A stretch of 64,000 bases of DNA from the NCBI GenBank assembly GCA_030390025.1, contig CM059432.1, forward strand, positions 70,124,001 to 70,188,000, read 5' to 3'. The notes under the pieces are model-generated. The model saw only the letters and a list, made by a program, of their open reading frames with translations, was not told the DNA's origin and did no database searches. Both the position numbers and the translations under genes were made by a program. Below, in pieces: positions 3,621 through 63,770 of this stretch. How positions within the stretch are numbered: the first letter of the stretch is position 1; the number at the start of each line of letters is the position of its first letter. The DNA comes from Squalus acanthias (lineage: Eukaryota).

Positions 3621-3818
3621 GCCTCTAGTTATTAGATTAATTAACATTTTTAGTATACCCCTCTGCCCTTAGTTAAAAATTAAAAGACAACAGACAAAAA
3701 ACAGCAGTGATACTCACTGGCCCCGAATCTGAATAGCAAAGAAAAACTATGTGACCTTTACCAACCAATCAGTTGCCAGCTATCCTGTGACGTCACTCCT
3801 TGTGTTTTTTTTTCCCTC

Positions 3819-4281: not shown

Positions 4282-4624
4282 ATATTAAAGTAGTCTCTGC
4301 ATTCCCTTATATATTTAAGTGTTATAAAAAGAGATATCTTTACACCGACTGTTATCTCTCAGTCACCCAATTGCTGGCTTGAGGTAACACTGATATCTGG
4401 TGCAGTGAGATCATGGATGAGGAATACTTCCCATAATCCACTGTCCTCACTCATGATGTCACTGCAAGAGTTTGTGCAGGAAATGTCTGTTCCAAGACTG
4501 CCTGTAGTCAAGTATAAAATGTGGTAACTTAAAGTGACTGAGACACACTGTGAAGTGTGCAAAGATCTCACTTATAATGTTTAAAGTTATGAAGCAGTTT
4601 TTTTTTGTAAGTTTGCATTTGTAA

Positions 4625-6492: not shown

Positions 6493-7251
6493 GGCCTGTA
6501 TTTTCCGATTGCAGGCCTCCCGCGGGCGGAGGCCTGCGAACTGGAAAAATCTGCGCCCTTACCTGAGGGCTCCCGGGACGGCACACGCTTCCGATGCTGA
6601 GCCTCACCAAACTGCAAGTGCGCAGGGCCCACGTATCCCAGAGGCGCATGTAGTTCGCAGCGTCCCTGGGATCACGTGGGCCATGGGGAGCCAATCACAG
6701 AAGGGAATCTCCCTTCATATATTTGACAGGAAGACCTGTCAAATATATGAATGGAGATCAATGAAAAAACATAGTAAAACTTTAAATAAATTATTTTTAA
6801 AAATCACTTTTTTAAAATGACTTGAAATTACAATAAATTAAGTATTTTAAACAAAAATTTAATTTTTTGAAAAAATAATTAAAGTATTTTACGGGGCTAA
6901 AAATAAACTTACCTTTTTTAAAGTATTTTTAAATGATAAATCAGTGAAAACATTTTTTTTTTTACTTTTTTCTACTCTTATCCTGGTAAAAGCAGGCCTT
7001 ACGCCTGCTTTTACCAGGCGTAAGAATTGTAAGGGTTTTCTGCGGGCGGAGGGGTCTCCAAAAAGCGGAACTATCCGCCCGCAGAGGCCCTTCTCCAGGG
7101 CAGCCGGAGGATCTGTCAAGAGAATTCTTGACAGATCGGAAATGCCGGTTTTCAGCGCATGCGCTGTGCATGTCTGAAACCAGCATTTCCGATGTCTCTA
7201 CGGGTGGGTGCACAGCGCGTACCCACCCGTAGGGATCGGAATATCCGGCCC
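6493..7251. mobile_element. Non-autonomous hairpin-rich TIR element (Harbinger-type ends), copy 1
   Basis: Imperfect 17-bp TIRs GGCCTGTATTTTCCGAT / ATCGGAATATCCGGCCC; flanks ATT/AAT; several perfect internal hairpins; homologous to 59688-60430. Confidence 0.8.
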
Positions 7252-8069
7252 AATAGCTTTCCAAACATTAGGGTAGGACGCATCTTGTGGTCACAAGCAT
7301 CTTGATGTGAACCAAATGTTAGAAAGTTAAATAATAACACATCAAAGGTAGGTTTAATTTTAGATTTTTCGTTTCCTTAGTGGTTCAGTTGATAATTGTA
7401 CCTCCTGACATGGAATTGAGCCATGCATATTAGGAAAATCATAACTTTAATTTCTGCTCTTGCGGACCTTAGCCAGAGAGGCTGTAGGAGCATTACAATG
7501 GATCTTATTGCCCTAGGCGAGAGAGAGGAAAACTAGTCAGAGTTATCACTTTTGAATGCTGCTCGTAAACCCTGCTGGAAATGACTCATGTGGATGTTGG
7601 ATAAGGATGGGATTGTGCTCCCCATGGTAAAATATCCTGTCAGTTCCTCATTGTCTGGGCTCACAGAGATGGCCAATTGGCCGAGTTACTGGAGAGTGGT
7701 GGGCCCATGAAACTTTACAGCTGGCAAGAGTCAATGGGTGGAACTGTCAATTTCAGTGGGAGTTTAAAGCGAGCGGTAGCAGATCGACCACCTGATTTTC
7801 CTTTCCATTGATCTATAACAGACAGCGAATCTGCTATCGCCCGTTTTATGCCCTCGCCGAAGTTGAAAGCTTCGTTCAACATCTTCAAATGAAAAAGAAA
7901 ATTGGGGTTAAAGATTAATTTTGTTTTCATCATAATTCAGAAAGGAAGGCCCACAAATAGGATTTTTTGAGAGCTTTTCCTGGTGTATTCCCTTAGACCC
8001 ATCCACAACAGAGCATTCTCTGCTACAACAGTTTAACATTTCCATTTATTGCACCACTCAGCCTGGAGG

Positions 8070-15510: not shown

Positions 15511-18500
15511 GTATTCTTTTTAATTCATTCAGGGGATGTGGGTGTCGCTGACAAGACAAGCATTTATTGCCCATCCCTAATTGCCCTTGAGAAGGTGGTG
15601 GTGAGCCGCCGCCTTGAGCTGCTGCAGTCCGTGTGGTGAATGTACTCCCACAGTGCTGTTAGGTAGCGAGTTCCAGGATTTTGACCCAGCGACGATGAAG
15701 GAACGACGATATATTTCCAAGTCAGGATGGTGTGTGACTTGGAGGGGAACTTGGAGGTGGTGGTGTTCCCATGCGCCTGCTGCCCTTGACCTAGGTGGAA
15801 GAGGTCGCGGGTTTGGGATGTGCTGCCGAAGAAGCCTTGGCAAGTTGCTGCAGTGCATCTTGTAGATGGTACACACTGCAGCCACGGTATGCCGGTGGTG
15901 GAGGGAGTGAATGTTTAAGGTGGTGGATGGGGTGCCAATCAAGCGGGATGCTTTTTCCTGGATGGAGTCGAGCTTCTTGAGTGTTGTTGGAGCTGCACTC
16001 ATCCAGACAAGTGGAGAGTATTCCATCACACTCCTGACTTGTGCCTTATAGATGGTGGAAAGGCTTTGGGGAGTCAGGAGGTGAGACACTTGCCACAGAA
16101 TACCTGGCCTCTGACCTGCTCTTGTTGCCACAGTATTTATGTGGCTGGTCCAGTTAAGTTTCTGGTCAGTGGTGACCCCCAGGATGTTGATGGTGGGGGA
16201 TTTGACGATGGTAATGCCGTTGAATGTCAGGGGGAGGTGGTTAGACTCTCTCTTGTTGGAGATGGTCATTGCCGGGCACATGTGTGGCGCGAATGTTACC
16301 TGCCACTTATCAGCCCAAGTCCGAATGTTGACCAAGTCTTGTTGCATGCACGCATGGACTGTTTCATTATCTGAGGAGTTGCGAATGACACTGAACACTG
16401 TGCAATCATCAGCGAACATCCCCACTTCAGACCTTACGATGGAGGGAAGGTTGTTGATGAAGCAGCTGAAGATGGTTGGACCTAGGACACTGCCCTGAGG
16501 AACTCCTGCAGTGATGTCCTAGCAGTGAGATGATTGGCCTCCAACAACCACAACCATCTTCCTTTGTGCTATGTATGAGTCTAGCCAGTGGAGAGTTTCA
16601 CCGATTCCCATTGACTTCAATTTTACTAGGGCTTGATGCCACACTCGGTCAAATGCTGCCTTGATGTCAAGGACAGTAACTCTCACCTCGCCTCTGGAAT
16701 TCAGCCCTTTTTTCCATGTTTGGACATCCATCATGAGATCTGGAGCTGAGTGGTCCTTGCGGAATCCAAACTGAGCATCAGTGAGCAGGTTATTGGTGAG
16801 TAAATGCTGCTTGATAGCACCGTCAACAACACTTTCCATTGCTTTGCTGATGTTTGAGAGTAGACTGATGGGGCGGTAATTGGCCGGATTGCATTTGTCC
16901 TGCTTTTTGTGGACTGGACGTACCTGGGCAATTTTCCACATTGTCGGGTAGATGCCAGTGTTGTAGCTGTACTGGAACAGCTTGGCTAGAGGCGCGGCTA
17001 ATTCTGGAGCACAAGTCTTCAGCGCGATAGCCGGGATGTTGTCAGGGCCCATAGCCTTTGCAGTATCCAGTGCGCTCAGCATTTCTTGATATCACGTGGA
17101 GTGAATCGAATTGGCTGAAGACTGACTTCTGTGAGGGTGGGGACTTCAGTAGGAGGCTGAGGTGGATCACCCACTCGGCACTTCTGGTTGAAGATGGTTG
17201 CATACGCTTCAGCCTTGTCTTTTGCACTCACATGCTGGGCTCTGTCATCATTGAGGATGGGATGTTCATGGAGCCTCCTCTTCCAGTTAGTTGTTTAATT
17301 GTCCACCACCATTCACGACTGGGTGTTGCAGGACTGCAGAGCTTTGATCTGATCCGTTGGTTCTGAGATCGCTCAGATCTGTCTATAGCATGCTGCTTCC
17401 GCTGTTTAGCATGCATGTTGTCCTGTGTTGTAGCTTCATCAAGTTAGATCATAATTTTTAAGCATGCCTGGTGCTGCTCTTGGCATGTTCTTCTACACTC
17501 CTCATTGAACCAGGGTTGGTCCTTGGCTTGATGGTAAAGGTAGAGTGAGGGACATGCTGGGCCATGAGGTTACAGATTGTGGTGGAATACAATTCTGCTG
17601 CTACTGATGGCCCACAGCGCCTCATGGATGCCCAGTTTTGAGCTGCTAGATCTGTTCTGAATCTATCCCATTTAGCACGGTGGTAGTGCCGCACAACACG
17701 ATGGAGGATGTCCTCAATGTGAAGATGGGACTTTGTCTCCGCAAGGACTATGCAGTGGTCACTCCTACCAATACTGTCATGGACAGAGGCATCTGCGACA
17801 GGTAGATTGGTGAGGTTGAGGTCAAGTAGGTTTTACCCTTTTTTTGGTTCTCTCGCCACCTACTGTAGGCCCAGTCTGGTAGTTATGTCCTTCAGGACTC
17901 GGCCAGCTCAGTCAGTAGTGGTGCTACCGAGCCACTCTTGGTGATGGACATTGAAGTCCCCCACCCAGAGTACATTCTGTGACCTTGCTACCCTCAGTGC
18001 TTCTTCCAAGTGGTGTTCAACATGGAGGAGTACTGATTCATCAGCTGAGGGAGGGCGGTAGGTGATAATCAGCAGGATGTTTCCTTGCCCATGTTTGACG
18101 TGATGCCATGAGACTTCATGAGGTCCAGAGTCAATGCTGAGGACTCCCAGGGCCACTCCCTCCCGTATACCACTGTGCTGCCACCTCTGGTGAGTCTGCC
18201 CTGCCGGTGGGACAGGACATAGCCAGGGATGGTGATGGAGGAGTCTGGGACATTGGCTGAAAGGTATGATTCTGTGAGTATGACTATGTCAGGCTGTTGC
18301 TTGACTAGTCTGTGGGACAGCTCTCCCAATTTTGGCACAAGTCCCCAATTGTTAGTGAGGAGGGTCGACTGGGCTGGGTGTGTCGTTGTCCAAAGCTGGT
18401 GCCTAGGTTGATGCCGGGTGGTCCTTTCAGTTTTATTATTATTGTTTTTCGTTACGGTTAGTTGCAACTGAGTGGCTTGCTAGGCCACTTCAGAAGGCAG

Positions 18501-18731
18501 TTAAGAGTCAACCACATGTGGGTCTGGAGTCACATATAGGCCAGACCAGGTAATGACAGCAGATTTCCTTCCTAAAGGACATTAGTGAACCAAGCAGATG
18601 GGATTTTACGACAATCCGGTAGTTTCATGGTCATTATTACTGATACTAGCTTTATATGATTCTGTGAGTATGACTCTGTCAGGCTGTTGCTTGACTAATC
18701 TGTGGGACAGCTCTCCATGGCATTTGAACTC
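15511..18731 (-). mobile_element. LINE family B (APE + RT, CR1/L2-related), near full length including its SINE-like head
   Basis: APE (NNWGL..DIVILTES, YRPP, VGDFN) and RT (YRPISLL, QFGFR, DIKAAFDRV, FADD), ending AAHHHLLKGN. The head at 18465-18655 matches 59470-59660; B-box remnant at 18722-18731. Confidence 0.92.
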
Positions 18732-20450: not shown

Positions 20451-22117
20451 TCTTACTCTGTGAATGTGTGTAATATAAAAAGCTCTCCCGAATGATATTC
20501 TTTGATGATGGTCCAAGGAATAAAGTTTTCCCTCTCCAGGAATTTCTAGTGCAGTTACTAGATTAGTGGACCCTTTTTATACAGATTTCATGGTGAAAGC
20601 AGCATTTGAGAACTCAGACTTTGCTTGTGTTGCCTTTATCCGTCCTGGGTTTACTGACATTATCTTTTTGCTGAGGTGAATTTGGAGCTGCTAAAGGAAA
20701 TAGCAGCATGAAGTGATCGTGTTTGCAATGCAATTTTCATTATCAGCCAGAAAAAATATTGGAGCGCTAAAAGAACAGAAGAGCTCATTACCTCTATGTT
20801 TGTCTTAGCAATTCTGCACCTGATTCCAGCAGCCAGGGCAGATGCCCAGTGCAAAAAATGACATAAATTAAAAATATCATCAAAACAGAAAATAAATAAT
20901 GGACGTTTTCTCATTGGTGATAAGTTGTGCCAGTTCTTTACACAAATGGCAGGCGATCTCCTTCAGTGTTGGTTGTGATGATTCTTTTTGCAGGCCTATC
21001 TATGTGTTTTTAAGTGGAGAGTCAATTGAGCCATTTTATCAATGTCACTTTATTCTAAAGGTGGTTCTGAATAGTGTGAAGAGCAGCTGGTGTCAAAGTA
21101 ACAAAAAGGTTATTCCAAATTTATGTTAATAATTTTTAAATAATCTCTTTTGTGGAACAGACCTTTATTCATCCAATAAGTTATCAGGGCAGAGGTGAGA
21201 GGTAGAATTTTGTGCTCATCAAATTGAAGGTCATCAATGCTAGGAATTCTGGCTAAAAATTGGATAAGGCCCGAAAATGGGCAGGGGGATCGCGATGCGT
21301 TATCAACCCACGCCTGTTGGGAGGATTGCAGGCAGCTTGCAATTTTGTGCTGCCTGCTGAGTAGCATGATTGTAGCGTTCAGTCCAGCACTGAACTCGTT
21401 GCTGAGTAGCTGAATGCTCAGCAGGGGGCCCAAGTTCATGCAAGGTTAGCTCCAATTAAAGCTAGCTTGCACCACTTAAAGGCAGTTTGCACATCATAAA
21501 GGAGACAGTGGAGAAGAAAGTTCTAATGATGGTACATCAGGGGAGATGGCGTGCACCTAGGTTCTCCGATGCAGCACTGGTGGCCTTGGTTCAGGAGGTC
21601 AACTGCAGGAGAGAGGTCCTCTTACCACAGGGGGGCAGGAGGCTCTCCAGGCAACAGACCAGAGTGCAGTGGGAGCATATAGCCAATGTGGTAAATGCCA
21701 GCAGTGTAGCCCGGAGGACCTGGACTCAGTGCAGCAAGAAGTTTAATGACCTCACACGAGTGTTCAAGGTCAGTGAATTCATCTTCAAATGCCATATCCC
21801 ACCATCTGCACCACTAGCCTCATACACTGCTCAATGCACCACACCTACATCACTCACCTACCAAAATTCTCAACCAAACACGACTCACAACTCACAATCA
21901 TAGCTTCACTTCACCCTCACAACCTTACCACTGCTGCAACACTCATACCTACATCTCACAGCTTGCACACACTGCCAGCTATTCAACCAAGACAGCCACA
22001 TCACCCAAACACATTGCACCACACTCACTGACACACTTCCCTTTCTCTTGGCTTGCCTTCATGACCTCACCCCCATGGAGGAGACGGTGTTGGCCATTCT
22101 TGGCAGGGGCATGGCTG

Positions 22118-25030
22118 AGAAAACATTGGTGGGAGTTGTCTATAGGTCTCCAAACAGTAGTGGTAATGTAGGGGATGGCATCAGACAGGAAATTAGAGAT
22201 GCACGTAACAAGGGTACTACAGTAATCATGGGTGACTTTAATCTACATATAGACTGGCCAAACCAAATTAGCAATAATACTGTGGAGGATGAATTCCTGG
22301 AGTGTGTACGAGATGGTTTTTTAGACCAGTATGTTGAGGAGCCAACAAGGGAACAGGCTATCCTAGATTTGGCATTGTGCAATGAGAAGGGGTTAATTAA
22401 TAATCTTGTTGTGCGGAATCCTTTAGCAAAGAGTGGCCATAACATGATAGAATTCTTCATTAAAATGGAAAGTGAAGAAGTCCAATCCGAAACTAGGGTC
22501 CTAAATCTAAACAAAGGAAACTACGATGGTATGAGGAGTGAGTTGGCTATGATAGATTGGGGAGCTTCATTAAAAGGCATGACGGTGGATAGGCAATGGC
22601 AACATGGTGGCATAGTGGTTAGCACTGTTGCCTCACAGTGCCAGGGACCCGGGTTCGAATCTGGTCTCGGGTGACTGTCTGTGTGGAGTTTGTACATTCT
22701 CCCCGTGTCTGCGTGGGTTTCTTCCGGGTGCTCAGGTTTCCTCCCACAGTCCAAAGATGTGCGGGTTAGGTTGATTTGGCTATGATAAATTGACCCTTAG
22801 TGTTAGGGGGATTAAATACGTGGGGTTACGGGGATAGGGTGGGATATGTGTCGGTGCAGGCTCGATGGGCCGAAATGGCCTCTATCTGCACTGTGGGGAT
22901 TCTGTGAACATTTAAGGAACGAATGCATGAATTGCAACAGTTATACATTCCTTTCTGGTGCAAAAACACAAATGGAAAAGCGGCCCAACCATGGCTAACA
23001 AAAGAAATTAAGGATAGTATTAGATCCAAAGAGAAGTCATATAAAGTTGCCAGAAAAAGTAGCAAGCCTGAGGATTGGGAGCAGTTTAGAGTTCAGCAAA
23101 AAAGGACCAGGAGATTCATTAAGAGGGGAAAAATAGAGCATGAGAGCATGAGAGCAAACTTGCAAGGAACATAAAAGCGGATTGTAAAAGCTTCTACAAG
23201 TATGTAAAAAGAAAAAGATTAGTGAAGACAAATGTAGGTCCCTTACAGACAGAAACGGGAGAATATAATGGGGAACAAGGAAATGGCAGAGCAATTAAAC
23301 AAATACTTTGGTTCTGTCTTCACGGAAGAGGACGCAAATAACTTCCCAGAAATGCTAGGGAACCAAGGGTCTAGTGAGAAGGAGGAATGAAAGGAAATTA
23401 GTATTAGTAAAAAAATCGTGCTGGACAAATTAATGGGACTGAAAGCTGATAAATCCCCAGGGCCTGATAATCTGCATCCCAGAGTACTAAAAGAGGTAGC
23501 CATGGAAATAGTGGATGCATTGGTTGTCATCTTCCAAAATTCTATAGATTATGGAACAGTTCCGGCAGATTGAAGGGTGGCAAATGTAACCCCACTATTT
23601 AAAAAAGGAGGGAGAGAGAAAACCGGGAACTACAGACCAGTTAGCCTAACATCAGTGGTAGGGAAAATGCTAGAGTCTATTATAAAGGATGTGATAACAG
23701 GACACTTAGAAAATATCAACAGGATTAGACAAAGTCAACATGGATTTATGAAAGGGAAATCGTGTTTGACAAACCTACTGGAGTTTTTTGAGGGTGTAAC
23801 TGGTAGAATAGATAAGGGAGAATCAGTGGATGTGGTGTATTTGGATTTTCAGAAGGCCTTTGATAAAGTTCCACATAAGAGGTTAGTGTGCAAAATTAAA
23901 GCACATGGGATTGGGGTAATATACTGGCATGGATTGAAAATTGGTTAACAGACAGGAAACAGAGAGTAGGAATAAATGGGTCTTTTTCAGGGTGGCAGGT
24001 GGTGACTAGTGGGGTACCGCAGGGATCAGTGCTTGGGCCCCAGCTATTCACAATATATATCAATGATTTGGATGAGAAAACCAAATGTAATATTTCCAAG
24101 TTTGCTGATGACACGAAACTAGGTGGGATTGTGAGTTGTGAGGAGGATGCAAAGAGGCTTCAAGGCGATTTAGACAAGTTGAGTGAGTGGGCAAATACAT
24201 GGCAGATGCAGTATAACGTGGATAAATGTGAAGTTATCCACTTCGGACGGAAAAACAGAAAGGCAGAGTATTATTTAAATGGTGCTAGATTGGGAAATGT
24301 TGATGTACAAAGGGACCTGGGTGTCCTTGTACACCAGTCACTGAAAGCAAACATGCAGGTGCAGCAAGCATTTAGGAAGGCAAATGGTATGTTGGCCTTC
24401 ACTGCAAGAGGATTTGAGTGCAGGAGCAAGGATGTCTTACTACAGTTATACAGGGCCTTGGTGAGACCACACCTGGAGTACTGTGTGCAGTTTTGGTCTC
24501 CTTACCTAGGAAAGGATATACTTGCCATAGAGAGAGTGCAGCGAAGGTTCACCAGACTGATTCCTGCAATGGCAGGACTGTTGTATGAGGAGAGATTGGG
24601 TTGACTAGGCCTGTATTCGCTAGAGTTTAGAAGAATGAGAGGGGATCTCATTGAAACGTATAAAATTCTGACAGGGCTAGACAGACTGGATGCAGGGAGG
24701 ATGTTTCCCCTGGCTGGGGGGTCTAGAATGAGGGGTTACAGTCTCAAGATACGGGGTAGGACATTTAGGACTGAGATGAGGAGAAATTTCTTCACTCAGA
24801 GGGTGGTGAACCTGTGGAATTCTCTACTACAGAAGGCTGTGGATGTCAAGCCACTGAATATATTTAAGGAGGAGATAAATAGATTTCTAGACACAAAAGG
24901 CATCAAGGGGTATGGGGAGAGAGCGGGAATATGGTATTGAGATAAAGGTTCAGCCATTATCATGTTGAATGGCGGAGCAGGCTCGAAGGGCCGAATGGCC
25001 TACTCCTGCTCCTATTTTTCTATGTTTCTA
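22118..25030 (+). mobile_element. 5'-truncated CR1 LINE (ORF2 APE-RT to 3' tail)
   Basis: VGVVYRSP, MGDFN, YRPVSLTS, GVPQGSVLGP, FADD, RRNFFTQRVV; tail CTCCTGCTCCTATTTTTCTATGTTTCTA. Confidence 0.95.
22606..22906 (+). mobile_element. V-SINE (HE1-like) inserted in CR1 ORF2
   Basis: A box TGGCATAGTGG, B box GGTTCGAATC, V-domain TGTGTGGAGTTTGTACATTCTCCCCGTGTCTGCGTGGGTTT, CR1-type tail; AACAT on both sides. Confidence 0.9.
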
Positions 25031-25044: not shown

Positions 25045-26000
25045 GCCCAACCATCTTCAGCTGCTTCATCAATGACCATCCCTCCATCATAAGGTCAGAA
25101 GTGGGGATGTTCGCTAATGATTGCACAGTGTTCAGCGCCATTCACAGCTCCTCAGATAATGAAGCAGTCTATGCCCACATGCAGCAAGACCTGGACGACA
25201 TTCAGGCATGGGCTGATAAGTAGCAAGTAACATTCGCGCCGCACAAGTGCCAAGCAATGACTATCTCCAACAAGTGAGAGTCTAACCACCGCCCCTTAAC
25301 ATTCAACGGCATTACCATCGCCAAATCCCCCACCATCAACATTGTGATGGTTACCATTGACCAGGAACTTAACTGGACCAGCCACATAAATAATGTGGCA
25401 ACAAGAGCAGGTCAGAGACTGGGTATTCTGCGGCAAGTATCTCACCTCATGATTCCCCAAAGCCGTTCCACCAGCTACAAGGCACAAGTCAGGAGTGTGA
25501 TGGAATACTCTCCACTTGCTTGGATGAGTGCAGCTCCAACTACACTCAAGAAGCTCGACACCATCCAGGATAAAGCAGCCCACTTGATTGGCACCCCATC
25601 CACCACCTTAAACATTCACTCCCTCCACCACCAGCGCACTGTGGCTGCAGTGTGTACCATCTACAAGATGCACTGCAGCAACTCACCAAGGCTTCTTCCC
25701 ATCACCTCCCAAACCCATGACATCTACCACCTAGAAGGACAAGGGTAGCAGGCACATGAGAATATCATCACCTGCAAGTACCCTCCAAGTTACACACCAT
25801 CCTGACTTGGAAATATATCGCCGTTCCTTCATCATTGCTGGGTCAAACTCCCTCCCTAACAGCACTGTGGGAGTACCTTCACCACACAGACTGCGGCAGT
25901 TGAAGAAGGCGGCTCACCACCACCTTCTCAAGGGCAATTAAGGATGGGCAATAAATGCTGGCCTTACCAGCGATACCCACATTCCATGAATGGAAAAAAA
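25045..26000 (+). mobile_element. LINE family B 3' fragment
   Basis: Matches 15511-16480 and 49443-50400, ending AAHHHLLKGN plus an A-rich tail. Confidence 0.92.
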
Positions 26001-26609
26001 GGACTCAGATGAAGACTTCGATGGGGCAGCCTAGAGAAGAACGCTGATGGGTATGCACAATGAAATGCTTGGTGCATTGGCAGGCCTGCCAGAAAGCCTG
26101 AATGCAATGTCAAGGAGCATGGAGGAGTCCAGCTCCAGCCTTGCACAGGGCTTTGGGCAGAGCTTGGAGCCCATCCTTTCCAGCATGGAAGGGGTGGGCA
26201 GATCCATTAACTAGACTGCTGCCACCCATGCTGAGACGGTGTAGTGCGAAGCCGGGCCTACTCAGCCCATAGTTCCTCAAGGTCATCCTTCAACTCCATC
26301 TGCAGGCTCCCCCACTGAAAGTCAGCAGCCAACCACCAGCCATGCTGCAGCCACTATGGTAGCACTGCGTAGGAGCACTAGGACTGGCAAAGGCAAAGGC
26401 ACATGAATGACAGGCACTAAGGGAATGCACAAGGGTGATTAGTTGATTTTTTGATGTAATAGTGGATGGATAGATGTATAAAGTTGGATTGGAATGTTTG
26501 CTTTGTGGTGGCTTTTATTTCAGCATTGTGGCCAAGGCGACGCTGTGATAGTCAGTAGCAGAGGGAAGGTAAGGTGTGGGACTAATGTTGAATGGGGAAT
26601 TCGGGCTGC

Positions 26610-27748
26610 GTTCACTGGTAACAGACGGATGATTCAATCCCAGATATCCCAGCCAGAAAAGGGCTGTCTGTGTTGCCTCCTTCCTTCTACTTCCTCCTCC
26701 TCCTTCTCCTCCACTCCTCTTGTTCCTCCATCTCATCTTCTTCCTCCTCCTCTTATTCCTCCTCCTCCTGCTCCTGAGCTGGTGGCGTATCCCTGTTGGC
26801 AAGGACTGTGCCCTCATGATGGGCAGGTTGTTGAGGCAGACCACCATGAATCGGGACACACGCCTCCAGTGAGTACTGTAAGGCTCCTCCAGTGCAGTCC
26901 AGGAAGCGGAAGCATTGTTTCAGCACCCCAATGGTCTGCTCTATGTTGTTTTGTGTGGCAGCATGGCTCTCGTATGAATGCTGGCCACGTGTGGTTGGGT
27001 TGCGGAGTGGAGTCTTGAGCCAGGTGGTCAAAGAATAGCCCTTGTCACTCAGTAGCCACCCTCTGGTTTGTCTTTGTGGCTCAAAGACTGAGGGAACATC
27101 GAACTGGCGGAGAGTAAAAGCTTCATGACTGCTGCCAGGATACTAGGCATTCACCATCATGATATGTTGAGCATGGTCGCATACTGCACATTCAGCGAGT
27201 GGTAACCTTTGCGGTTGCGGTACATCTCAGCATTTAGATATGGTGCCCGCAAAGCCACGAGTGTGCAGTCGATGGCACCCTGCACCATGGGGAAGTCCAC
27301 TGTCCTGGCAAAGCCATGCTCTAGCTGCTTCTCTCTGGTCAGAGAGATGGCAATGAAGTCCTCTCTCCTGGCATAAAGAGCTTCTATCACCTCTCTTATG
27401 CAGCGGTGGACGGCGAACTGAGATGTTACAGATGTCGCCTGCTCCAGCCTAGAAGGATCCCGACTCAAAGAAATTCAGGCCACGGTCATCTTCACAGCCA
27501 CGGGCAGAGGTGGCAGAGTTCTGTGAGCACCTCCTTTGTAAAGCGCAGATGCCTCACACACTGCTTCTGGCTCAGGTTGAGGTAAGAGAATTGCTCTCAG
27601 AAGACCCTTGGTGGGTAAGGCCTCCTGCTCAGAGCCCTTCTCCCCTCCTCCTGCTCCCTCTGCGAGCAGCTTGTCCTCTTCTTTGCTGCCTCTGCTCCAT
27701 CTCCCTGTCATGCTGTAGGCCAAGGGGGATGACAACTAGAGCACCCAT
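26610..27748 (-). pseudogene. Harbinger (HARBI1-like) DDE transposase, disrupted
   Basis: MGA start at 27748; SQFAVHRCIREV, FPMVQGAIDCT, NRKGYHSLNVQ, IEQTIGVLKQCFRFLD..GGALQYS. Confidence 0.9.
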
Positions 27749-28009
27749 AACTGGGAGCAATGGTCTGACCAGAACCCTTGAAATCAGAAGCAAGGTCTTC
27801 TCCACTTGCAGCACCACTCCCTGTCACCTCACCAACTTTAAATAACTCTAGAAAGCTCCAAACAGTTCAACAAACTTACACAGAGCCAGCAGAAATCAAA
27901 AAGCAAGTTACCCGAAAGTTGTGATGATTCATTTAAATATCGCTGGTGAGGGGGGAGTCCTTCCTGTTGCTGAACGCATGTTCAGCTGTACAACATTAAC
28001 ACAGGGCGT

Positions 28010-28817
28010 TAGTTCCAGCAAACCCCTCTGCGAGGATATTGGTTCCGGTCCTGTTGAGGTACAACCCGTCCGGCCTGTACAGGTCCCACCGCCCCCAGAA
28101 CCGGCCCCAATGCCCCAAGAATATGAAGCCCTCCCTCTTGCACCATCTCTCCAGCCATGCATTCATCTGCTCTATCCTTCTATTTCTATACTCACTCGCG
28201 CGTGGCACTGGGAGTAATCTAGAGATTACTACCTTTGAGGTCCTGCTTTTTAATCTCTTTCCTAGCTTCCTGAAGTCTGCATGCAGGAACTGATCCCTCT
28301 TCCTACCTATGTCGTTGGTACCGATATGGACCACAACCTTTGGCTGTTCACCCTCCCCCCTCAGAATGTTCTGCAGCCATTCGGTGACATCCTTAACCCT
28401 GGCACCAGGGAGACAACAAACCATCCTGGACTCACGCCTGCGTCCACAGAAACGCCTGTCTGCTCCCCTAACTATCGAATCCCCTACTACTATTGCTCTC
28501 CCTATCTTCCTCCTTCCCCCCTGGAGAGCTGAGCCACCTGTGGTGCCGTGGACTTGGCTCTGGCTGTACTCCCCAGAGGAACCATCACCCTCGCCAGTAC
28601 TCAGAACAGAATACTGGTTGGAGAGCGAGATGCACTCAGGGGACTCTTGCACTACCTGCCTGGTCCTTCTCTTCTGTCTGGCGGTCACCCATTCCCTCTC
28701 TGCCTGCACACTCCTTAGCTGCGGGGTGACCAACCCCTGAATCGTGCTATCAACATAGCTTTCAGCCTCGCGGATGCACCACAGTAATGCCAGCTGCTGC
28801 TCAAGCTCCGAAACCCG
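28010..28817 (-). mobile_element. CR1 ORF1 (esterase) fragment, truncated at both ends
   Basis: ORF 27996-28868 is closely similar to 2787-3647 (IVVGDSIVRG, VVHIGTND, DGLYLN). Confidence 0.93.
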
Positions 28818-29292
28818 AATTTTTAGCCCTATATATTTATTAATGCGCCCATTGACAACATCAAACAATCATAAGTCAGGTACACTGTGTGTTCAATATA
28901 GGGTGAAGCCCATTCTATACTGCCCCAACCATGTGCTATAATTCCAGCATCAGTAGGACATCCTCAACTGCATCAATGTGACATTTCTGTTAAGCGCACC
29001 AGACATGCTTGAGCCTGATACTACAGTTAGTGCCAAATTATAGGTAGCTTAGTGCTATGGACCTATACCCGCTGGGAAGTAGATTCAAACTGTCTAAACT
29101 CATTTTATTTTGAATTCTTGCAGCAATCTGAATGTAGATTTTTTTCCCATCAAGCTAAGTTGAACTCAATCCAGGCCTGATATTCAAAGTATTATGTTCC
29201 AATACATTATGGCATCCACTTCAAGTTGCTAAGTACTTAAGAGTGTATTTTTAAAAAGGCTGTTGGAATGTTGGCCTTTATCTCAAGTCATA

Positions 29293-38337: not shown

Positions 38338-38440
38338 GGTGTCAGCCGTGGCTCAGTGGTAGCACTCTCACTTCTGAGCCAGAAGCTCGTGGGTTCAAGT
38401 CCCACTTCAGAGACTTGAGTTCATAATCCAGGCTGACACT
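38338..38440 (+). mobile_element. DeuSINE tRNA-like head fragment
   Basis: GGTGTCAGCCGTGGCTCAGTGGTAGCACTCTC...GGGTTCAAGTCCCAC (A and B boxes). Confidence 0.8.
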
Positions 38441-42810: not shown

Positions 42811-44244
42811 TTGGAGTTACATGATTTATATAGATAGCAGCCCAATCAGGAAGAATCCAATAATTCAAACTCATTTTCCAACTGGGTTTAAATCACTTAG
42901 TAAAATAAACTGAATTAGTCTTCAGCCAATTGACAGAGAAAAATAAATACTTCTAGATATAAAAAAATCTTTGCTTTGTTTTCTGTAACAAAGAAATTGC
43001 CGGTGTTAATCACAGGTATGTTAATTACAGACATTGCTTTCTACGAGCAGTTCAAAATAGAGATGGAGCAGTTGCTATGTGAAATTGGCCTGAAGTAAAG
43101 CTGTGAGAATTCAATCTCCAGTTTGTTTCAAAGTCTTTCACAAAATTCAATGAAGTTCACAAATCCTCTGGGGGTGAGGGGTTACACCCTTCTATATCAA
43201 CTCACTAAAGCATCATGGGAAATTGTGCAAGCTGAACATGATCAGAATGCACAGATGTGGTTGGAAATACCCTTCAATTGTTCTGGGGATACAACATCCA
43301 ATCAGAAAACCAAGATTTTGAGATTGGTTGAGACCTTAAAATAAAAACTTTAAGGAAGGCATTAAAAGACACAAAAGAAAATGGGCTGAATTTTAATGGG
43401 GAAGGCGGGTTGGGAGAGGGGTGGGGGGGGGTGGTTCTGAAGCGGTTGGAAAAATCCGGAAGAATGGGCTTCATGCAGGCCCTGCCGAATTTAACGGCAG
43501 GGCCTGATTTGCATGGGAAACCTCTGTTTCCCACCTGCAGCCAGCCAGATTGCGGGTAGACCTGCGGCACTAGGCCACAGAGAGGGAGGGATCACTCGGG
43601 GGCAGCTGGAGGAGCACGGAAATTAGCCCTATAAGCTCGAAGATGGTGATCAAGAAAATGAGGTTAATGTGCACAGGAAGGCGTACACCATATACAAGAT
43701 GTTTAATATATTATAGAGGAGATAATTTACTTGTTATCCACTTGCAATGACATTTTAAAAAATAAAATTTGCTGTAGGGTACATGATTTTATTTTTAGCC
43801 ATGTATAAGGTCACTTTGAACTGACACAACCACATTTCCAATTTAATATTAATTTTAAATATTAGTTTCTATTACTCCATTGCCCACGGGGAAGTTACAA
43901 AGTAGACACAAATTATGAAATTCGCAACTTGTTGATTTTTAAAAAAAATAAAATAAATATGTTCAAGAATCATCTCAGAAAAAGGCTTTTTTCCCCTAAA
44001 TGTTTCAAAATGTTCCACCACGTATCTATTGAATGGCGGAGCAGGCTCGAAGGGCCAAGTGGCCTATTCCTGCTCCTATTTCTTATGTTCTTATGTTCAA
44101 ACACGTGACCGTTGATCTCATGCTCTTTTTCACTTTGGTTCTACTTCCTTAACGTAGGCTCCACAAAATTCCCCTTTTGACCTTTTCCTGCTTCCCCAAG
44201 CACCTGCTTCAAACTGCACTAACTTTTTCAAACCCCTTTTCTGT

Positions 44245-44683
44245 TAGAGGTTGGCTACTTGGAGACAAGGGCTATCCACTGAAGACGATGCTGATGACAC
44301 CCTTGAGGAGGCCAAGCAATGAAGCCGAGCAGCGCTACAATCAAAGCCACGTGACGACCAGATGTGTCATAGAGCAAGCAATCAGGATGCTGAAGATGCG
44401 CTTCAGATGCCTTGACAGATCTGGAGGAGCCCTGCAGTATGCACCAGCCAGGGTCTCCAGAATCATCACTGTCTGCTGCGCACTACACAACATAGTGCAG
44501 CAGCGAGGATTGGAGCTGCAGGAGGAGCAAGGCACAGAGCGCAGAGACTCTTCAGAGGAGGATGAGGAGGAGGAGCAGGTGGAACATGAGGAGGAGGAAC
44601 CTGAGGTGGAGATGGCACCAGCAGTGCCGCACATTGCTGCCTGGGAGGCCCGGGATGGCCTTATAATGGAACGATTTAGTTAG
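44245..44683 (+). pseudogene. Harbinger transposase C-terminal third
   Basis: GWLLGDKGYPL, YNQSH..TR.VIEQAI, RFRCLDRSGGALQY, CCALHN, acidic tail. Confidence 0.92.
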
Positions 44684-48574: not shown

Positions 48575-50408
48575 TTGCAGTCCTGCCCTATCCACTCGTG
48601 AATGGTGGTGGACCATTAAACAACTAACGGGAGGAGGAGGCTCCATGAATATCCCCATCCTCAATGATGGTGGAGCCAAGCACGTGAGTGCAAAATACAA
48701 GGCTGAAGCATTTGCAACCATCTTCAGCCAGAAGTGCCGAGTGGATGATCGATATCGGCCTACACCTGAGGTCCCCACCATCATAGAAGCCAGTCTTCAG
48801 CCAATTCGATTCACTCCACGTGATATCAAGAAACGGCTGAGCGAACTGGATACAGCAAAGGCTATGGGCCCCGACAACATCCCGGCTGTCGTGCTGAAGA
48901 CTTGTGCTCCAGAACTAGCCGCACCTGTGGCCAAGTTGTTCCAGTACAGCTACAACACTGGCATCTACCCAACAATGTGGAAAACTGCCCAGGTATGTCC
49001 TGTCCACAAAAAGCAGGACAAATCCAATCCGGCCAATTACCGCCCCATCAGTCTATTCTCAATCATCAGCAAAGTGATGGAAAGTGTCATCGGCAGTGCT
49101 ATCAAGCGGCACTTACTCACCAATAACCTGCTCACTGATGCCCATTTTGGGTTCCGGCAGGACCACTCAGCTCCTGACCTCATTACAGCCTTGATCCAAA
49201 CATGGACAAAGGAGCTGAATTCCAGAGGTGAGGTGAGAGTGACTGCCCTTGACATCAAGGCATCATTTGACCGAGTGTGGCATCAAGGAGCCCTAGTAAA
49301 ACTGAAGTCAATGGGAATCAGGGGGAAAACACTTCACTGGCTGGAGTCATACCTAACACAAAGGAAGATAGTTGTGGTGGTTGAAGGTCAATCATCACAG
49401 CCCCAGGATATCGTTGCAGGAGTTCCTCAGGGCAGTGTCCTAGGCCCAACCATCTTCAGCTGCTTCATCAATGACCTTCCCTTCAACATAAGGTCAGAAA
49501 TGGGGATGTTCACTGATGACTGCACAGTGTTCAGCGCCATTCACAACTCCTCAGATAATGAAGCAGTCCATGCCCGCATGCAACAAGACCTGGATGATGT
49601 TCAGGTTTGGGTTAATAAGTGGCAGGTAACATTCGTGCCACAGAAGTGCCAGGCAATGACTATCTCCAACAAGCGAGAATCTAACCACCGGCCCTTGACA
49701 TTCAACGGCATTACCATCACCAAATCCCCCACCATCAACATCCTGGGGGTAACCATTGACCGGAAACTTAACTGGACCAGCCACATAAATGCTGTGGCAA
49801 CAAGAGCAGGTCAGAGGCTAGGTATTCTGCGGCGAGTGTCTCACCTCCTGACTCCCCAAAGCCTTTCCAGCATCTACGAGGCACAAGTAAGGAGTGTGAT
49901 GGAATTCTCTCCACTTGCCTGGATGAGTATAGCTGCAACAACACTCAAGAAGCTCGACACCATCCAGGACAAAGCAGCCCGCTTGATTGGCACCCCATCC
50001 ACCACCTTAAACGTTCACTCCCTCCACCACCTGCTACCGTGGCTGCAGTGTGTATCATCTACAAGATGCACTGCAGCAACTTGCCAAGGCTTCTTCGGCA
50101 GCGCCTCCCAAACCCGCGACCTCTTCCACCTAGAAGGACAAGGGCAGCAGGCGCATGGGAACACCACCACATCCAATTTCCCCTCCAAGTCACACACCAT
50201 CCTGACTTAGAAGTATATCGCCATTCCTTCATCACTGGGTCAAAATCCTGGAACTCCCTAACAGCACTGTGGGAGTACATTCACCACACGAACTGCAGCG
50301 GTTCAAGGAGGCGGCTCACCACCTCCTTCTCAAGGGCAATTAGGGATGGGCAATAAATGCTGGCCTTGCCAGCGATGCCCACATTCCATAAATGAATTTA
50401 AAAAAAAT
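48575..50408 (+). mobile_element. LINE family B, 5'-truncated, with a long open RT frame
   Basis: ORF 48543-50210 (555 aa): GPDNIP, YRPISL, GVPQGSVLGP, FTDD; family B tail. Confidence 0.95.
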
Positions 50409-54245: not shown

Positions 54246-55391
54246 TTGGGGGCTGTACTGATTCGGGGCGTTGTCCTGCGCCTGCAGAATCAGAGGCAAC
54301 AGAGACGCAGAGAGAGAGTGGCAAACATAGCCAGAGGGAGGAGGGCCAACAGGATTCTGCACAGGAAGCCTTACCCTCCCAGGGTATTCCGGGAATAATT
54401 CTCCTACATTAATTTGTCTGAGGAGCAGTGTTTGCGCAGGCTGCGCTTCAGCAAGGAGGTAGTCACTGAGCTCTGCCACCTGCTGCAGCCAGATCTGCAG
54501 CCTCAACTGAGGACCAGGCCGTCTCTGTCGGTGGCAGTGAAGGTCACAGTGGCTCTGAACTTTTATGCCACCAGCTCCTTTCAAGCAGCTACTGGGGACA
54601 TCACCAATATCTCCCAGTTCGCGGTCCATTGCTGTATCCGTCAGGTCACAAATGCCCTCTATAAAAGGAGACGCCAGTACATCTCTTTCCCGATGACCGA
54701 GGCCAAACAGCATGAACGCACATTGGGCTTTGCGAGGATAGCGGAGTTCCCCATGGTGCAGGGCGCCATTGACTCCACGCATGTGGCATTGCGGGCACCG
54801 CATGAGAATGCAGAGGTTTTCCGAAACCGCAAGGGGTTCCACTTCTTAAACGTCCAGTTGGTCTGTGACCACAGACAGCTGATACTCGCAGTCAATGCCC
54901 GCTATCCTGGCAGCAGCCATGATGCTTTCATCCTGCGCCAGACTGCTGTGCCAGAACTTTTCCAGGCACCGCATCAGCCAAGTGGTTGGCTCCTCGGGGA
55001 CAAGGGTTATCCACTGTGCACCTGGCTGATGACACCGCTCCATAACCCCAACACCCCTGCTGAGCTGCGGTACAATGAGAGCCATCTTGCCACCAGGAAC
55101 ATCATTGAGTAGACGATCGGCATGCTCAAGCAACGGTTCCGCTATCTGGACCACTCAGGAGGAGCCCTGCAGTACTCGCCTGAGCGAGTCTCCCTCTTCA
55201 TAGTTGTGTGCTGCATTTTTCATAACCTGGCAATCCTCAGGACCCAGCCAATGCCACCAGGCCTTGGAGCACCACTGGAGGAGGAGGAAGAGGAGGAGGA
55301 TGATCAGCAGCAGCACCAAGGCGGGAGGGAGGCCCACGATGTTGAAACTGCAAGGGCTGTCCGTCAACGACTGATAACAAGCGGCTTCTAG
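54246..55391 (+). pseudogene. Harbinger DDE transposase, single frame with two nonsense codons
   Basis: ORFs 54177, 54414 and 55122 share one frame; GAIDSTH, NRKG, YPGSSHD, GDKGY, NIIE. Stops at 54396-98 and 55110-12; the presumed start reads TTG. Confidence 0.95.
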
Positions 55392-55756: not shown

Positions 55757-57486
55757 TTAATAAAAAAATTCCCAACATTTCGTCACACCTCCTACTTTTT
55801 GCACTTCGAGGGTGATCTTCCTCTTGCGCACTTCCCCCCTTCCCACCCTACTGCTCCTCCGTAATGGGGCCCCAGTGGATGCAGCAAGGCTGGTGGAAGG
55901 CTGCTGATTGTCAGAACCTGAGACTACAGATGCCCTTGAAGGACGGCCTCGACCAGCTCTGGGCCTGGAGGGCCCGGCTGCAGACTGCACCAACTCTGCA
56001 TGGGCAGGCAGCAGTCTGGGCTACAGGCAGGTGGCAAGTGCAATGGGGAAGTGACAGTGGTGGGGCAGCAGCTCAGCATCCGGAGCAATCTGCTGGAGCA
56101 CAGATTGCTGGCCTGCTGCGGCACGTGAGAGCCCCAGGGGAAATGTGTCCAAACCAGCAACAATGGCAGCAGTCAGTGCTTGCGTGGCCTCAATCTGAGT
56201 CTGCATGAAACCAGTCTGAGATTGGATCACGGCAGCCAGTGACTGAATTGCAGCACTAAGCATTTGCGTGGCGTCTGCCTGTGCTACAGCATAGTGCTCC
56301 ACACTCCTTGCCAGTGCATCAATACTTTCGGGCACCCTTCCCACTGCACCCATGAGCTGAGTGTGCATGTCCACCGCCTGGGTGTTCATTTCAGCGATAA
56401 GCGACTCCTCCTCTGCGTTCAGTGCAGCAGGACTCACTGGCCTACTCTCCCTCCGGGGAGAAGGCCCCCGAGCTTCCCTAGCCACATCGCGTTGCTGCAG
56501 CCCGCTGGATCCCGGAGCTTCACCCTCATCAGACCCTTCCCCCCTGCTCCCCTCCAGGGAAGACGTGTTCCCAGTGTGGGCATAGGCTTCCTCGGAAGAG
56601 GGTGGCACTGATGCTCCAGCTTCCTCTTCCTCCTCGCCTGCGACTTCGCTCCCACTGGCAGCTTGAGGGCCCGTCTCCTCAGCTGGTGAATCACCATCTG
56701 AAAGCAGGGAGGTACAAGAGTGGCTTTAGCGTGAGGACAGGGGGGCAGTAAGGGAGGAAGGAGTGCAGCAATTTAGTAAGTTGGATTGAAAGTGTCAAAG
56801 GCTGGTGTTGTGAGGGACAAGTGGAATGAGAGAGGAGAGAAAGCTGATGGCCTTACCATTGCTGTCCCGAACGGGGTCGACCTCTCCAGGGGCGACGGGA
56901 CCGATCACCCGGCTTGCCACAGTCCTGTGGACGCACGCCTCAAGATCGCTGAGGGGTTGCAGCTGAGGCTGCCCTCCACCCGTCTGTTGCTGCTGTCTCC
57001 TGTTATGAGATAGCTTGGCCTGCAAGAAAAAGGACGGCGTCTGAGTAAATATACAACCATGGTCTTGCCTGATGTGCCTCCCACAGTTGAATAGCTCTTA
57101 CTGTATGCAAGGTGTGGAATGTGTGTGTGTGTTTCATGAGAGGGCCATAGGTGTTGGATGAGTGTTGGGCATTGGGGTTTTAAGACCCTCTGGCAATAGA
57201 GTGAGGTTGAAATGGAGGGATGGAGAGGTATTGAAAAAAATCCACTCATCCTGACGACCCGAGTGAGGTCGTTGAACGTTTTGCGACATTGATTATGGGT
57301 CCTGGGCACCATGCTCCTGGAGGAGACGTGCTGAGCCACCTCCCTTCACACACTTCTGTAGTCGTGCGGCAAAGGCCTCCTGCCACTCTCAGGGTCGAGT
57401 ATAGATCTTCTGCGCTCCACCGCGCCAACCAGAGCCTCCAAGGCCCGCTCGCTGAAGCGCTGAGCTCATTCTCTCACCCTCTCCAT
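55757..57486 (-). pseudogene. Harbinger Myb/SANT gene, 3 exons (57486-57250, 57019-56857, 56697-~55760)
   Basis: AQRFSERALEALV..., RTHNQCRKTFNDLTR; exon 2 AKLSHN..QTGGG; exon 3 joins in frame with ORF 56021-56608. The exon 1 donor reads ATGAGT. Confidence 0.87.
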
Positions 57487-59332: not shown

Positions 59333-62300
59333 GGGAACGGTAGCATAGTGGTTATGTTACTGGACCAGTAATCTAGAGGCCTGGAACAATAATCCAGTCG
59401 ACGTGAGTTCAAATCTCACCACGGCAGCTGTGGAATTTAAATTTGGTTAATTAAATAAATCTGGAATAAAAAGCTAGTATCAGTAATAGTGACCATGAAA
59501 CTGCCAGATTATCGTAAAAACCCATCTGGTTCACTAATGTCCTTTAGGGAAGGAAATCTGCCGTCCTTACCTGGTCTGGCCTATATGTGACTCCAGACCC
59601 ACAGCAATGTGGTTGATTCTTAACTGCCCTCTGAAATGGCCTAGCAAGCCACTCAGTTGTATAAAAATCGCTACAAGAAATAAGAATGGCCCAGAAATTG
59701 ATCTCGCTCTGTTCCCGCGGGGGTAAGCCTTCCCCGCGATGTCTCACCTCGCTTATGCTTTTTCTGATCCAGCTCGCACGAACTTGATGTTCCAGACATC
59801 AGCTGTGCTGGGCTTGCGTATCCCAGCGGCGCAGTTAATTCGTGCGAGCTGTGGGATCACGTGACTCAGTTAGAGCCAATGGCAGCACACCATCTTCCAT
59901 TCATAAGTCTCACAGCATGGCTGTGAGACTTATGAATCTTACACCCCCCCAAAATAACAGCTAAACCTCAATTAAATTTAAAAAAAAACCATCACATTAA
60001 TAAAATAAGTATAGTTAATTAAATTAACCATTTTAAATAAAAAATTAAATTTTTGAAAAAATTTAAAATCTTTTAAAAAGTTATAAAAATAAACTTACCT
60101 GTCTTTAAAGTCTATAAAAAAGATATACCTGTAAAAAAAAATTCAAAAAAATACTTAATTCACTACTTACCTTCTTAAAAGCGGGTCTTACTCCTCCTTT
60201 TTACATTTCCAAAATCTTCCGTACTTACCTGCGCGTCCAAAGCATGAAGTGCACAGCGTGCGCGCAGCCTGTAGCGCGCACGCGATGCACTCAGGCCCCG
60301 CCCCCTTTTCGGAAGAGCAATTGCCGGTTTTCAGCGCATGCGCAGGGCATGCAGAAAACCGGCAATTGGAGTGGGAATACGCGAGAGTATGCAGTGCGTA
60401 CTCTCGCGTCCCGGGATCAATTTTCGGCCCAATAAGAATAAAACTGGACGGACCACCCGGCATCGATCTCAGCACCGGCTTCAGACACGGCAACGGCACA
60501 CCTAGCCCAGTCGACCCTGCAAAGTCCTCCTCTGGGGACTTGTGCCAAAATTGGGAGAGCTGTCCCACAGACCAGTCAAGCAACAGTCTGACATAGTCAT
60601 ACTAACAGAATCATACCTTTCTGCCAATGTCTCAGACTCCTCCATCACCATCCCTGGGTTTGTCCTGTCCCACCGGCAGGACAGACCCACCAGGGGTGGT
60701 GGCACAGTGGTATACAGTCAGGAGGGAGTCGCCCTGGGAGTCCTCAACATTGACTCTGGACCCCATGAAGTCTCATGGCATCAGGTCAAGCATGGGCAAG
60801 GAAACCTCCTGCTGATTACCACCTACCTCCCTCCCTCAGCTGATGAATCTGTACTCCTCCATGTTGAACACCACTTTGAAGAAGCACTGAGGGTAGCAAG
60901 GGCACAGAATGGACTCTGGGTGGGGGCCTTCAATGTCCATCACCAAGAGTGGCTCAGCAACACCACTACTGACTGAGCTGGCCGAGTCCTGAAGGACATA
61001 GCTGCCAGACTGGGCATGCGGCAGGTGGTGAGAGAACCAACACAAGGGAAAAACGTACTTGACCTCATCTTCACCAATCTACCTGTCGCAGGTGCATCTG
61101 TCCATGACAGCATTGGTAGCAGTGATCACCGTACAGTCATTGTGGAGACAAAGTCCCGTCTTCACATTGAGGACACCCTCCATCGTGCTGTGTGGCACTA
61201 TCAATTACCGTCCCGTCAGTCTACTCTCAATCATCAGCAAAGTGATGAAAGGTGTTGTTGACAGTGCTATCAAGCAGAACTTACTCACCAATAACCTGCT
61301 CACTGATGCTCAGTTTGGGTTCCGCCAGGACCACTCAGCTGCAGGCCTCATTACAGCCTTGGTCCAAACATGGACAAAAGAGCTGAATTCCAGAGGTGAG
61401 GTGAGAGTTACTGCCTTCACATCAAAGCAGCATTTAACTGAGTGTGGCATCAAGGAGCCCTAGTAAAATTGAATGTAATGGGAATGAGGGGAAAAACACT
61501 CCACTGGCTGGGGTCATACCTAGCACAAAGGAAGGTAGTTCTGGTTGTTGGAGACCAGTCATCTCAGCCCCAGGACATCGCTGCAGGAGTTCCTCAGGAC
61601 AGTGCCTAGGTCCAACCATCTTCAGCTGCTTCATCAATGACCTTCCCTCCATCATAAGGTCAGAAGTGGGGATGTTCGCTGATGATTGCACAGTGTTCAG
61701 TTCCATTCGCAACTCCTCAGATAAGGAAGCAGTCCATGCCCGCATGCAGCAAGACCTGGACGACATTCAGGCTTGAGCTGATAAGTGGCAAGTAACATTC
61801 GCGCCACACAAGTGCCAAGCGATGACTATCTCCAACAAGAGAGCATCTAACCACTGCCCCTTGACATTCAACGGCATTACTATCGCTGAATTCCCCAACA
61901 TCAACATCCTGGGGGTCACCATTGACCAGAAATTTAACTGGACCAGCCACATAAATACTGTGGCTACAAGAGCAGGTCAGAGGCTCAGTATTCTGCGGTG
62001 AGTGTCTCACCTACTGACTCCCCAAAGTCTTTCCACCATCTACAAGGCACAAGTCAGGAGTGTGATAGAATACTCTCTGCTTGACTGGTTGAGTGCAGCT
62101 CCAACAACACTCAAGAAGCTCGACACCATCCAGGACAAAGCAGCCCACTTGATTGGCACCCCATCCACCACCTTAAACATTCACTCCCTCCACCACCAGC
62201 GTACCGTGGCTGCAGTGTGTACTATCTACAAGATGACCTGCAGCAACTCCCCAAGGCGTCTTCGACAGCACCTCCCAAACCCGTGACTTCTACCACCTAG

Positions 62301-62580
62301 AAGGACAAGGGCAGCAGGTGCATGGGAACACCACCACCTGCAAGTTCCCCTCCAAGTCATACACCATCCTGACTTGGAAATATATCGCCATTCCTTCATC
62401 ATCGCTGGGTCAAAATCCTGGAACTCCCTCCCTAACAGCACTGTGGGAGTACCTTCACCACACGAACTGCAGCGGTTCAAGAAGGCGGCTCACCACCACC
62501 TTCTCAAGGGCAATTAAGGATGGGCAATAAATGCTGGCCTTGCCAGCGACGCCCAGATCCCAGGAACAAATTTTAAAAAA
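59333..62580 (+). mobile_element. LINE family B with tRNA-like head, interrupted by a TIR element and internally deleted at ~61200
   Basis: A box TAGCATAGTGG (59341) and B box GAGTTCAAATC (59405); APE at 60542-61200; RT from 61203 to ~62515; family B tail. Confidence 0.92.
59688..60430. mobile_element. Non-autonomous hairpin-rich TIR element, copy 2
   Basis: TIRs GGCCCAGAAATTGATC / GATCAATTTTCGGCCC; AAT flanks; it cleanly interrupts the LINE B 5' region. Confidence 0.85.
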
Positions 62581-63679: not shown

Positions 63680-63770
63680 TATTTATTGCCCATCCCTATT
63701 TGAAAGGCTTGCATTTATAGTGCCCTTGAGAGGGTGGTAGTGAGCTGCCTTCTTGAACCACTGTGGTCTA
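63680..63770 (-). mobile_element. LINE family B 3' tail fragment
   Basis: FKKAAHYHPLKG and TTTATTGCCCATCCCTA. Confidence 0.8.

Follow-up and report, generated by a model that had tools for sequence, protein, structure and literature searches.

As a working rule, LINEs are coding elements transcribed by RNA polymerase II (Pol II) and SINEs are non-coding elements transcribed by polymerase III (Pol III). Weak processivity is held to limit Pol III elements to about 1.3 kb (PMC10886601, Kojima 2024). Zenon LINEs were described in five elasmobranchs, where they are more than 84% alike, bear a poly(A) tail and are still absent from repeat repositories (Stuart et al. 2026, PMC13343379); according to the same paper, ORF1 is missing throughout Rex1 and Zenon, and likewise from L2 clade B. 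Zenons are also known to spawn internally deleted derivatives, and Persaeus stems from a lepidopteran Zenon (PMC6740152).

We analysed a window of 64,000 nt of Squalus acanthias DNA, in which the original prediction had placed a LINE with a tRNA-derived Pol III head and no ORF1. What is new here, judged from sequence, is the recognition of a family-wide tRNA head, together with a purge of T runs, in a LINE family that already has a name. The head is present in the published Zenon data and is unremarked in the main text of PMC13343379, where the terms "tRNA" and "polymerase III" do not occur, and in the part of its supplement examined, where "tRNA" does not occur. Among the papers listed in our literature searches, no title or abstract opening reports an autonomous LINE that has a tRNA head or is driven by Pol III; these searches covered neither Repbase and Dfam nor subscription journals, the PMC13343379 Zenodo files, the PMC5499810 supplement and one PMC4824008 file.

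The Zenon element and its relatives in the window

By its match to the published data, the element at 59333 (copy A; Table 1) is a decayed, dead copy of an elasmobranch Zenon LINE, a CR1-group retrotransposon of about 3.3 kb with a single ORF (APE-RT) and a poly(A) tail. Its first base is that of the consensus SquAca_Zenon-1 (3314 nt; PMC13343379 supplement), the first 12 nt are identical, and we counted by eye about 22 differences over about 330 nt (around 93% alike). All Zenon consensus comparisons cover the first 400 nt of each consensus, and in this part SquAca was the closest to copy A. Relative to the consensus, copy A has two peculiarities, the insertion of an element with terminal inverted repeats (TIR) and a deletion of 800 nt; once the insert is taken out and the deletion is restored by length, copy A measures about 3.3 kb. 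The deletion is internal, precedes the RT part and amounts to about 800 nt relative to copy B.

Table 1. Features of copy A and other Zenon copies in the window (positions of the 64,000-nt stretch).
Feature	Position	Strand	Remarks
tRNA-like head	59333..59425	+	Rfam tRNA match; base 1 is consensus base 1 (by eye)
Body, possibly 5' UTR	59426..59687	+	Conserved across shark and ray Zenons; A-rich end
TIR insertion	59688..60430	.	Later, non-autonomous, about 743 nt; strand not assigned; absent from copy B and all consensuses
Linker	60431..60526	+	96 nt; Arg-rich in the APE frame, with one copy-specific stop
APE endonuclease part of the single ORF	60527..61203	+	Decayed; Pfam PF14529 on the corresponding part of copy B
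RT and C-terminal part	61202..62510	+	Frameshifts and stops; PF00078 on copies B and C
3' UTR	62511..62580	+	AATAAA, stem-loop, short A tail ending at 62580
Copy B, nearly full length	15513..18731	-	B-box remnant, APE duplicate, body, linker, APE-RT, A-rich tail
Copy C, 5'-truncated	48576..50406	+	
Copy D, 5'-truncated	25047..26003	+	
Old 3'-end fragment of the Zenon family	63681..63763	-	

Zenon traits were recovered in the window: copy A has the single APE-RT ORF without an ORF1, and all four copies end in A-rich stretches of 5–8 A, in agreement with a poly(A) tail. The traits of canonical vertebrate CR1s, an esterase ORF1 or clustering with esterase-bearing CR1s and a microsatellite tail, were not found. 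In a quick RT tree (52 rows, with no named Zenon reference), copies B and C stood apart from the canonical CR1s and the L2 of the window, and near unnamed APE-RT proteins of 935–990 aa (38–46% identity).

The body proper of copy A ends at about 59660 and is followed by the A-rich stretch, which the TIR element breaks. The arms of this insertion (59687–59706 and 60412–60431) are 80% complementary, and an AAT duplication flanks it on both sides, a 9-nt duplication also being possible. Without the insert, the distance from the end of the body to the start of APE (about 60527) is about 120 nt, as had been expected of a body leading into APE within about 150 bp. A relative of the insertion lies at about 6494–7255 and is 68–71% alike in parts; both are non-autonomous, with GGCC/GGGC-type ends, which we take to be Harbinger-like, and several perfect internal hairpins.

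Copies B, C and D are 88–90% alike to copy A, and the four copies descend from about one master. Copy B shares with copy A the body (198 nt, 89.9%), the linker and the APE (774 nt, 88.6%), and the claim that it has the same body directly upstream of APE was correct. It had also been argued that a B-box remnant in copy B makes the head part of the element. Indeed, GAGTTCAAAT occurs in the window solely at 59405 and 18731, the latter being the 10-nt remnant of copy B (18731–18722). However, an equal local alignment was reached by 24 of 3186 background 40-mers, so the remnant is modest evidence, and a 62-nt duplicate of APE sequence that the prediction had left out (18716–18655, 96.8% to 18326–18265) sits between the remnant and the body. 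The 5' end of copy B thus looks like a rearranged junction, and copy B, taken on its own, attests the junction of the body and not the head. Short shared words are present at both joints of this 5' end; template switching during insertion is the suggested origin of the arrangement.

The window holds several other mobile elements. Two further tRNA-like heads with A and B boxes lie on the + strand (22608–22905 and 38349–38410); the former does not match the Zenon body and is presumably an HE1/V-SINE copy. On the - strand, 9696–11668 contains two long open frames (435 and 264 aa) of a putative Tigger/pogo DDE transposase. Harbinger-like transposase fragments were recognised by eye in the ORF list (54399–55112, 26753–27474 and 44153–44683), as were possible Myb/SANT partner frames near 21466–21903 and 56905–57345. 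Finally, a canonical CR1 occupies 188–4290 (- strand), with an esterase-like ORF1 at 2787–3668 and tandem repeats of 86–87 nt in its 5' region (3843–4290), and a second ORF1 was found at 27996–28868.

The tRNA-like head within the family

The predicted A box/B box head was confirmed by both boxes and by the Rfam tRNA model. The A box, TAGCATAGTGG, lies at 59341–59351, and the B box core, GTTCAAATC, starts at 59407 in the B box/T arm (59402–59418). Between them we found an anticodon-like arm (59360–59376) with AGT at the centre of its loop, followed by about 25 extra nt before the T arm. Positions 7–64 of the 71 of the tRNA model matched 59340–59420 with 26.7 bits (E 0.0068), which is below the gathering value of 29. 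The acceptor stem is not kept, ARAGORN called no tRNA gene on the head, and folding of the head is weak (z -1.5); the body showed no special folding (z -0.3 and -1.5).

We compared the head with seven elasmobranch Zenon consensuses from five species (CarCar_, HypSab_, RhiTyp_ and ScyCan_Zenon-1, and SquAca_Zenon-1/2/3; PMC13343379 supplement). By eye, the order head, body, linker opens all seven; each of them has the A box and six have an intact B box, and the spacer between the boxes varies. The starts (first 400 nt) of two hagfish and one coelacanth Zenon from the same source contained TTTT and no such head (0 of 3).

Gene models offered a second view of the junction. A search of a representative library with the APE gave 913 matches, and 33 of the 150 matches listed had at least 55% identity. 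Four of these 33 reach the start of APE with residues upstream, and all four have body or linker there (P0122, P0131 and P0147 by tblastn, P0140 by eye); one more (P0198) has body and then a later APE exon, and the other 28 either begin within APE or are joined to other exons. Four further proteins came from a second search, all with linker-derived residues (by eye). The nine proteins with body or linker are whale-shark gene models, four of them judged by tblastn and five partly or wholly by eye; linker or body was therefore present in 8 of the 8 whale-shark models that reach the APE start with upstream residues, in addition to the one with body and a later APE exon. Zenon-family APE pieces were also seen as exons in the shark gene models P0137, P0165, P0198, P0247 and P0258 (one a Heterodontus CWC25 homolog), and such exons are probably annotation artefacts.

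Outside this family, the 700 nt preceding APE held no pair of A and B boxes in any of 74 related loci, in a search that recovered the head of the window as a control. These loci are mixed CR1-group elements, 27–44% identical, many of them probably not Zenons and most of them T-richer; many have an N-terminal extension. Rfam tRNA matches were absent from the 17 loci checked out of 161 (with no equal-size control), and low-threshold ARAGORN matches on related loci look like noise. Zenon-family DNA patterns had no matches in viral and metagenome contigs, and none of 113 candidates was recovered when long proteins were sought with a linker-APE query. Many prokaryote MAG contigs (L082–L161) encode CR1-group LINE proteins, and 558 of the 602 pattern stretches were confirmed; most likely the bins are contaminated with host DNA.

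On these comparisons, the head belongs to the elasmobranch Zenon family and is lacking from the hagfish, coelacanth and invertebrate relatives examined. The claim that it is part of the element is thus borne out by the seven consensuses and the whale-shark gene models, and not by copy B.

The same cannot be said of the terms "SINE-like body" and "SINE-LINE chimaera". Three SINE domains available as printed alignments were compared with the body, and none matched: by eye, 59426–59660 is unlike the printed Deu alignment, so that identity with the Deu domain or SacSINE1 was rejected, and the printed UCON3 and Meta alignments do not resemble it either (PMC7245038 supplement). Three body motifs had no matches in the supplements searched. 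Possibly the body is a 5' UTR that belongs to the LINE itself, and a SINE donor is hypothetical.

T-run depletion, transcription and translation

The original prediction proposed a check of the sense strand for depletion of TTTT, and the depletion holds. We counted no TTTT in 2493 nt of copy A (without the insert, to 62570), none in 3217 nt of copy B, one in 1821 nt of copy C and none in 954 nt of copy D; five other LINE stretches of the window, 7537 nt in all, contain 24. The single run of copy C is a change private to that copy, and the sole run of copy A outside the insert lies just before the A tail (62571–62574). None of the 92 related loci of at least 2.4 kb was free of TTTT, and one had a single run. 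Windows with at least four T in five numbered 6, 3, 4 and 1 in copies A–D (24.3, 26.3, 13.9 and 7.3 expected), and T-rich pentamers were accordingly at 0.11–0.29 of expectation, against a lowest value of 0.53 and a median of 1.13 in 136 related loci; the corresponding G control showed no depletion in the coding parts. The locus with that lowest ratio (L083:91–2799) has one TTTT in 2.7 kb; it comes with 90 nt of upstream sequence.

With protein and codon usage both fixed, TTT was depleted (9 against 16.2 expected, P 0.002), and other LINEs were at expectation (80 against 80.3). TCTTT and TATTT, which are named as terminators in PMC8466645, together occur once across all four copies. Taken alone, TTTT depletion was not significant against a first-order Markov null (P 0.10–0.41) or under codon permutation (1 against 3.5 expected, P 0.09), and Phe TTT was not rarer relative to other T-ending codons (P 0.25). 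The four copies count as one test and not four, because they descend from about one master. In all four, AATAAA stands about 50 nt ahead of the tail, a position that suits Pol II as well, although some SINE RNAs made by Pol III acquire their poly(A) via an AATAAA signal (PMC8466645).

No ORF1 was found, the longest ATG ORF in the 1.5 kb upstream of the head being 62 aa. The predicted absence therefore stood, but it is not unusual, since it is a clade trait of all Zenons (PMC13343379). It gives no argument for Pol III, because Zenons without the head also lack ORF1. Transcripts made by Pol III can be mobilised in the L1 system when ORF1p is absent (PMC2666806); a LINE that lacks ORF1 could therefore plausibly host a Pol III promoter, but this proves nothing.

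The statement that no clear ATG is visible was right for the window, as the linkers of copies A and B have none, but not for the family: six of the seven consensuses have a linker ATG, where copy A has ATA (by eye). This ATG is out of frame with APE in HypSab, whose consensus is readable through to APE, and copy A has the same offset. We found no conserved in-frame AUG across the family. The APE frame extends upstream through an Arg-rich stretch, and a mini-frame, ATG-GCC-TAG, stands at the end of the body (59636–59644) and in six of the seven consensuses. By eye, it is in frame with APE in the consensuses of three of the five species and in copy B, and out of frame in the other two and in copy A; read-through from it may be a lead.

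From these patterns, we consider that Pol III probably makes the full-length Zenon RNA, which is the best reading of the boxes and the T runs. Translation from the same RNA is a step of which we are less sure and which we put forward only tentatively. As a whole, our proposal, possible and still somewhat doubtful to us, is that the shark and ray Zenon would be an autonomous coding retrotransposon whose 3.3-kb RNA is made wholly by Pol III, starting from an internal promoter of tRNA origin, and is translated with neither a cap nor an in-frame AUG. It would then be a natural Pol III mRNA kept since the divergence of sharks and rays, and a direct intermediate from LINE to SINE. An ancestor in the elasmobranch line would have gained the head by a template switch onto a tRNA or tRNA-SINE RNA. 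TFIIIC would bind the A and B boxes, Pol III would start at the first base of the head, read the whole 3.3 kb since terminators had been selected away, and stop where a first T run occurs, in the tail or beyond it. The RNA would be copied by target-primed reverse transcription from the 3' stem-loop and A tail, and each full-length copy would keep its promoter because the promoter lies inside the transcript. The weakest step would be the making of APE-RT from an uncapped RNA; ribosomes might initiate internally or at a non-AUG codon, or might re-initiate or read through after a short frame upstream.

It is unlikely, to our mind, that the head belongs to the family while the working RNA comes from Pol II, starting in the body or by read-through, so that the head would be a leftover, would bind TFIIIC in support of a Pol II promoter, or would set the 5' end as a signal for RNA processing. 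Such an origin would agree with the use of Pol II ascribed to all described autonomous non-LTR elements (PMC10886601, PMC5786205), with AATAAA in the four tails and with the Markov and codon-permutation results for TTTT, and a capped RNA would solve translation. It leaves unexplained, however, why T-rich pentamers are so scarce here when all 136 related loci have at least 0.53 of expectation, and why both boxes persist while the spacer drifts; in its RNA-processing version, the acceptor stem needed for tRNA-type processing is the very part not kept. A division of labour appears more improbable: Pol III would make the full-length template RNA and rare capped Pol II read-through of intact copies would provide the protein, the element behaving like an extra-long SINE that its own relatives mobilise. 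This would account at once for the boxes, the T-run purge and the absence of a conserved start codon, and Pol III RNAs are good templates in trans (PMC2666806). Yet an ORF that is not translated from the copied RNA would decay quickly, and five species retain consensuses of about 3.3 kb that cover APE and RT almost completely (PMC13343379).

We give very little weight to independent SINE insertions or chance nesting before two LINE copies, or to a LINE that targets a tRNA-SINE as its insertion site. Copy B, with its 10-nt head remnant only and rearranged 5' end, would fit such an origin, as would the lack of clear target-site duplications around copy A (none was found for copies A–D). The order of head, body and linker from base 1 in 7 of 7 consensuses from five species contradicts it, as does the same junction in the whale-shark gene models; moreover, the body has no free copy elsewhere in the 64-kb window, and the 3' flanks of copies A–D are unrelated to each other and contain no SINE remainder.

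If the proposal of a wholly Pol III-made coding RNA is true, a LINE family that is long-lived and abundant, carries a conserved tRNA head and has a body free of terminators would break the LINE/SINE polymerase rule, Pol III would be able to serve a 3.3-kb coding RNA in a vertebrate, and internal deletion would be a simple route from LINE to SINE. Repeat annotation of shark genomes may split one Zenon into a false SINE and a LINE. The published data include Zenon consensuses and a few copies whose ORF2 is intact (PMC13343379), which makes the proposal directly testable.

Comparison with known systems

Copy A does not differ in kind from the elasmobranch Zenon LINEs, with which it shares the first bases, body, linker, single APE-RT ORF and A tail. 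R2 is likewise a single-ORF non-LTR element; its RNA, as proposed here for Zenon, is no capped product of Pol II and needs no ordinary start for its translation. R2 RNA, however, is excised from a co-transcript that Pol I makes at a fixed site, and R2 has another endonuclease, whereas Zenon has no fixed target.

The likeness to tRNA-derived SINEs (SINE2; SacSINE1/Deu-SINEs and CmiSINEs of cartilaginous fishes, PMC5499810) lies in the 5' tRNA-like head with A and B boxes, which copy A has, the anonymous body, the LINE-type tail and a sense strand free of T runs. SINE2 elements are short and non-coding, whereas Zenon is 3.3 kb long and codes for APE-RT, and its body is unlike the printed Deu, UCON3 and Meta domains (SacSINE1's own sequence was not part of this comparison). 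TRIMp3 elements (Cassandra, Helenus and Ajax; PMC10886601) are non-SINE retrotransposons with Pol III promoters derived from small RNAs, as proposed here. They differ from Zenon in being of LTR type, non-coding and at most about 1.3 kb long, and their autonomous partners are expected to use Pol II.

Persaeus has no tRNA similarity and no Pol III promoter (PMC6740152). Bipartite LINE-derived SINEs and SIDEs (Kojima 2018, PMC5786205) also connect SINE-like elements with the 5' portion of a LINE that lacks ORF1; they add the head to a non-coding derivative, whereas in the elasmobranch Zenon the head sits on the coding element itself.
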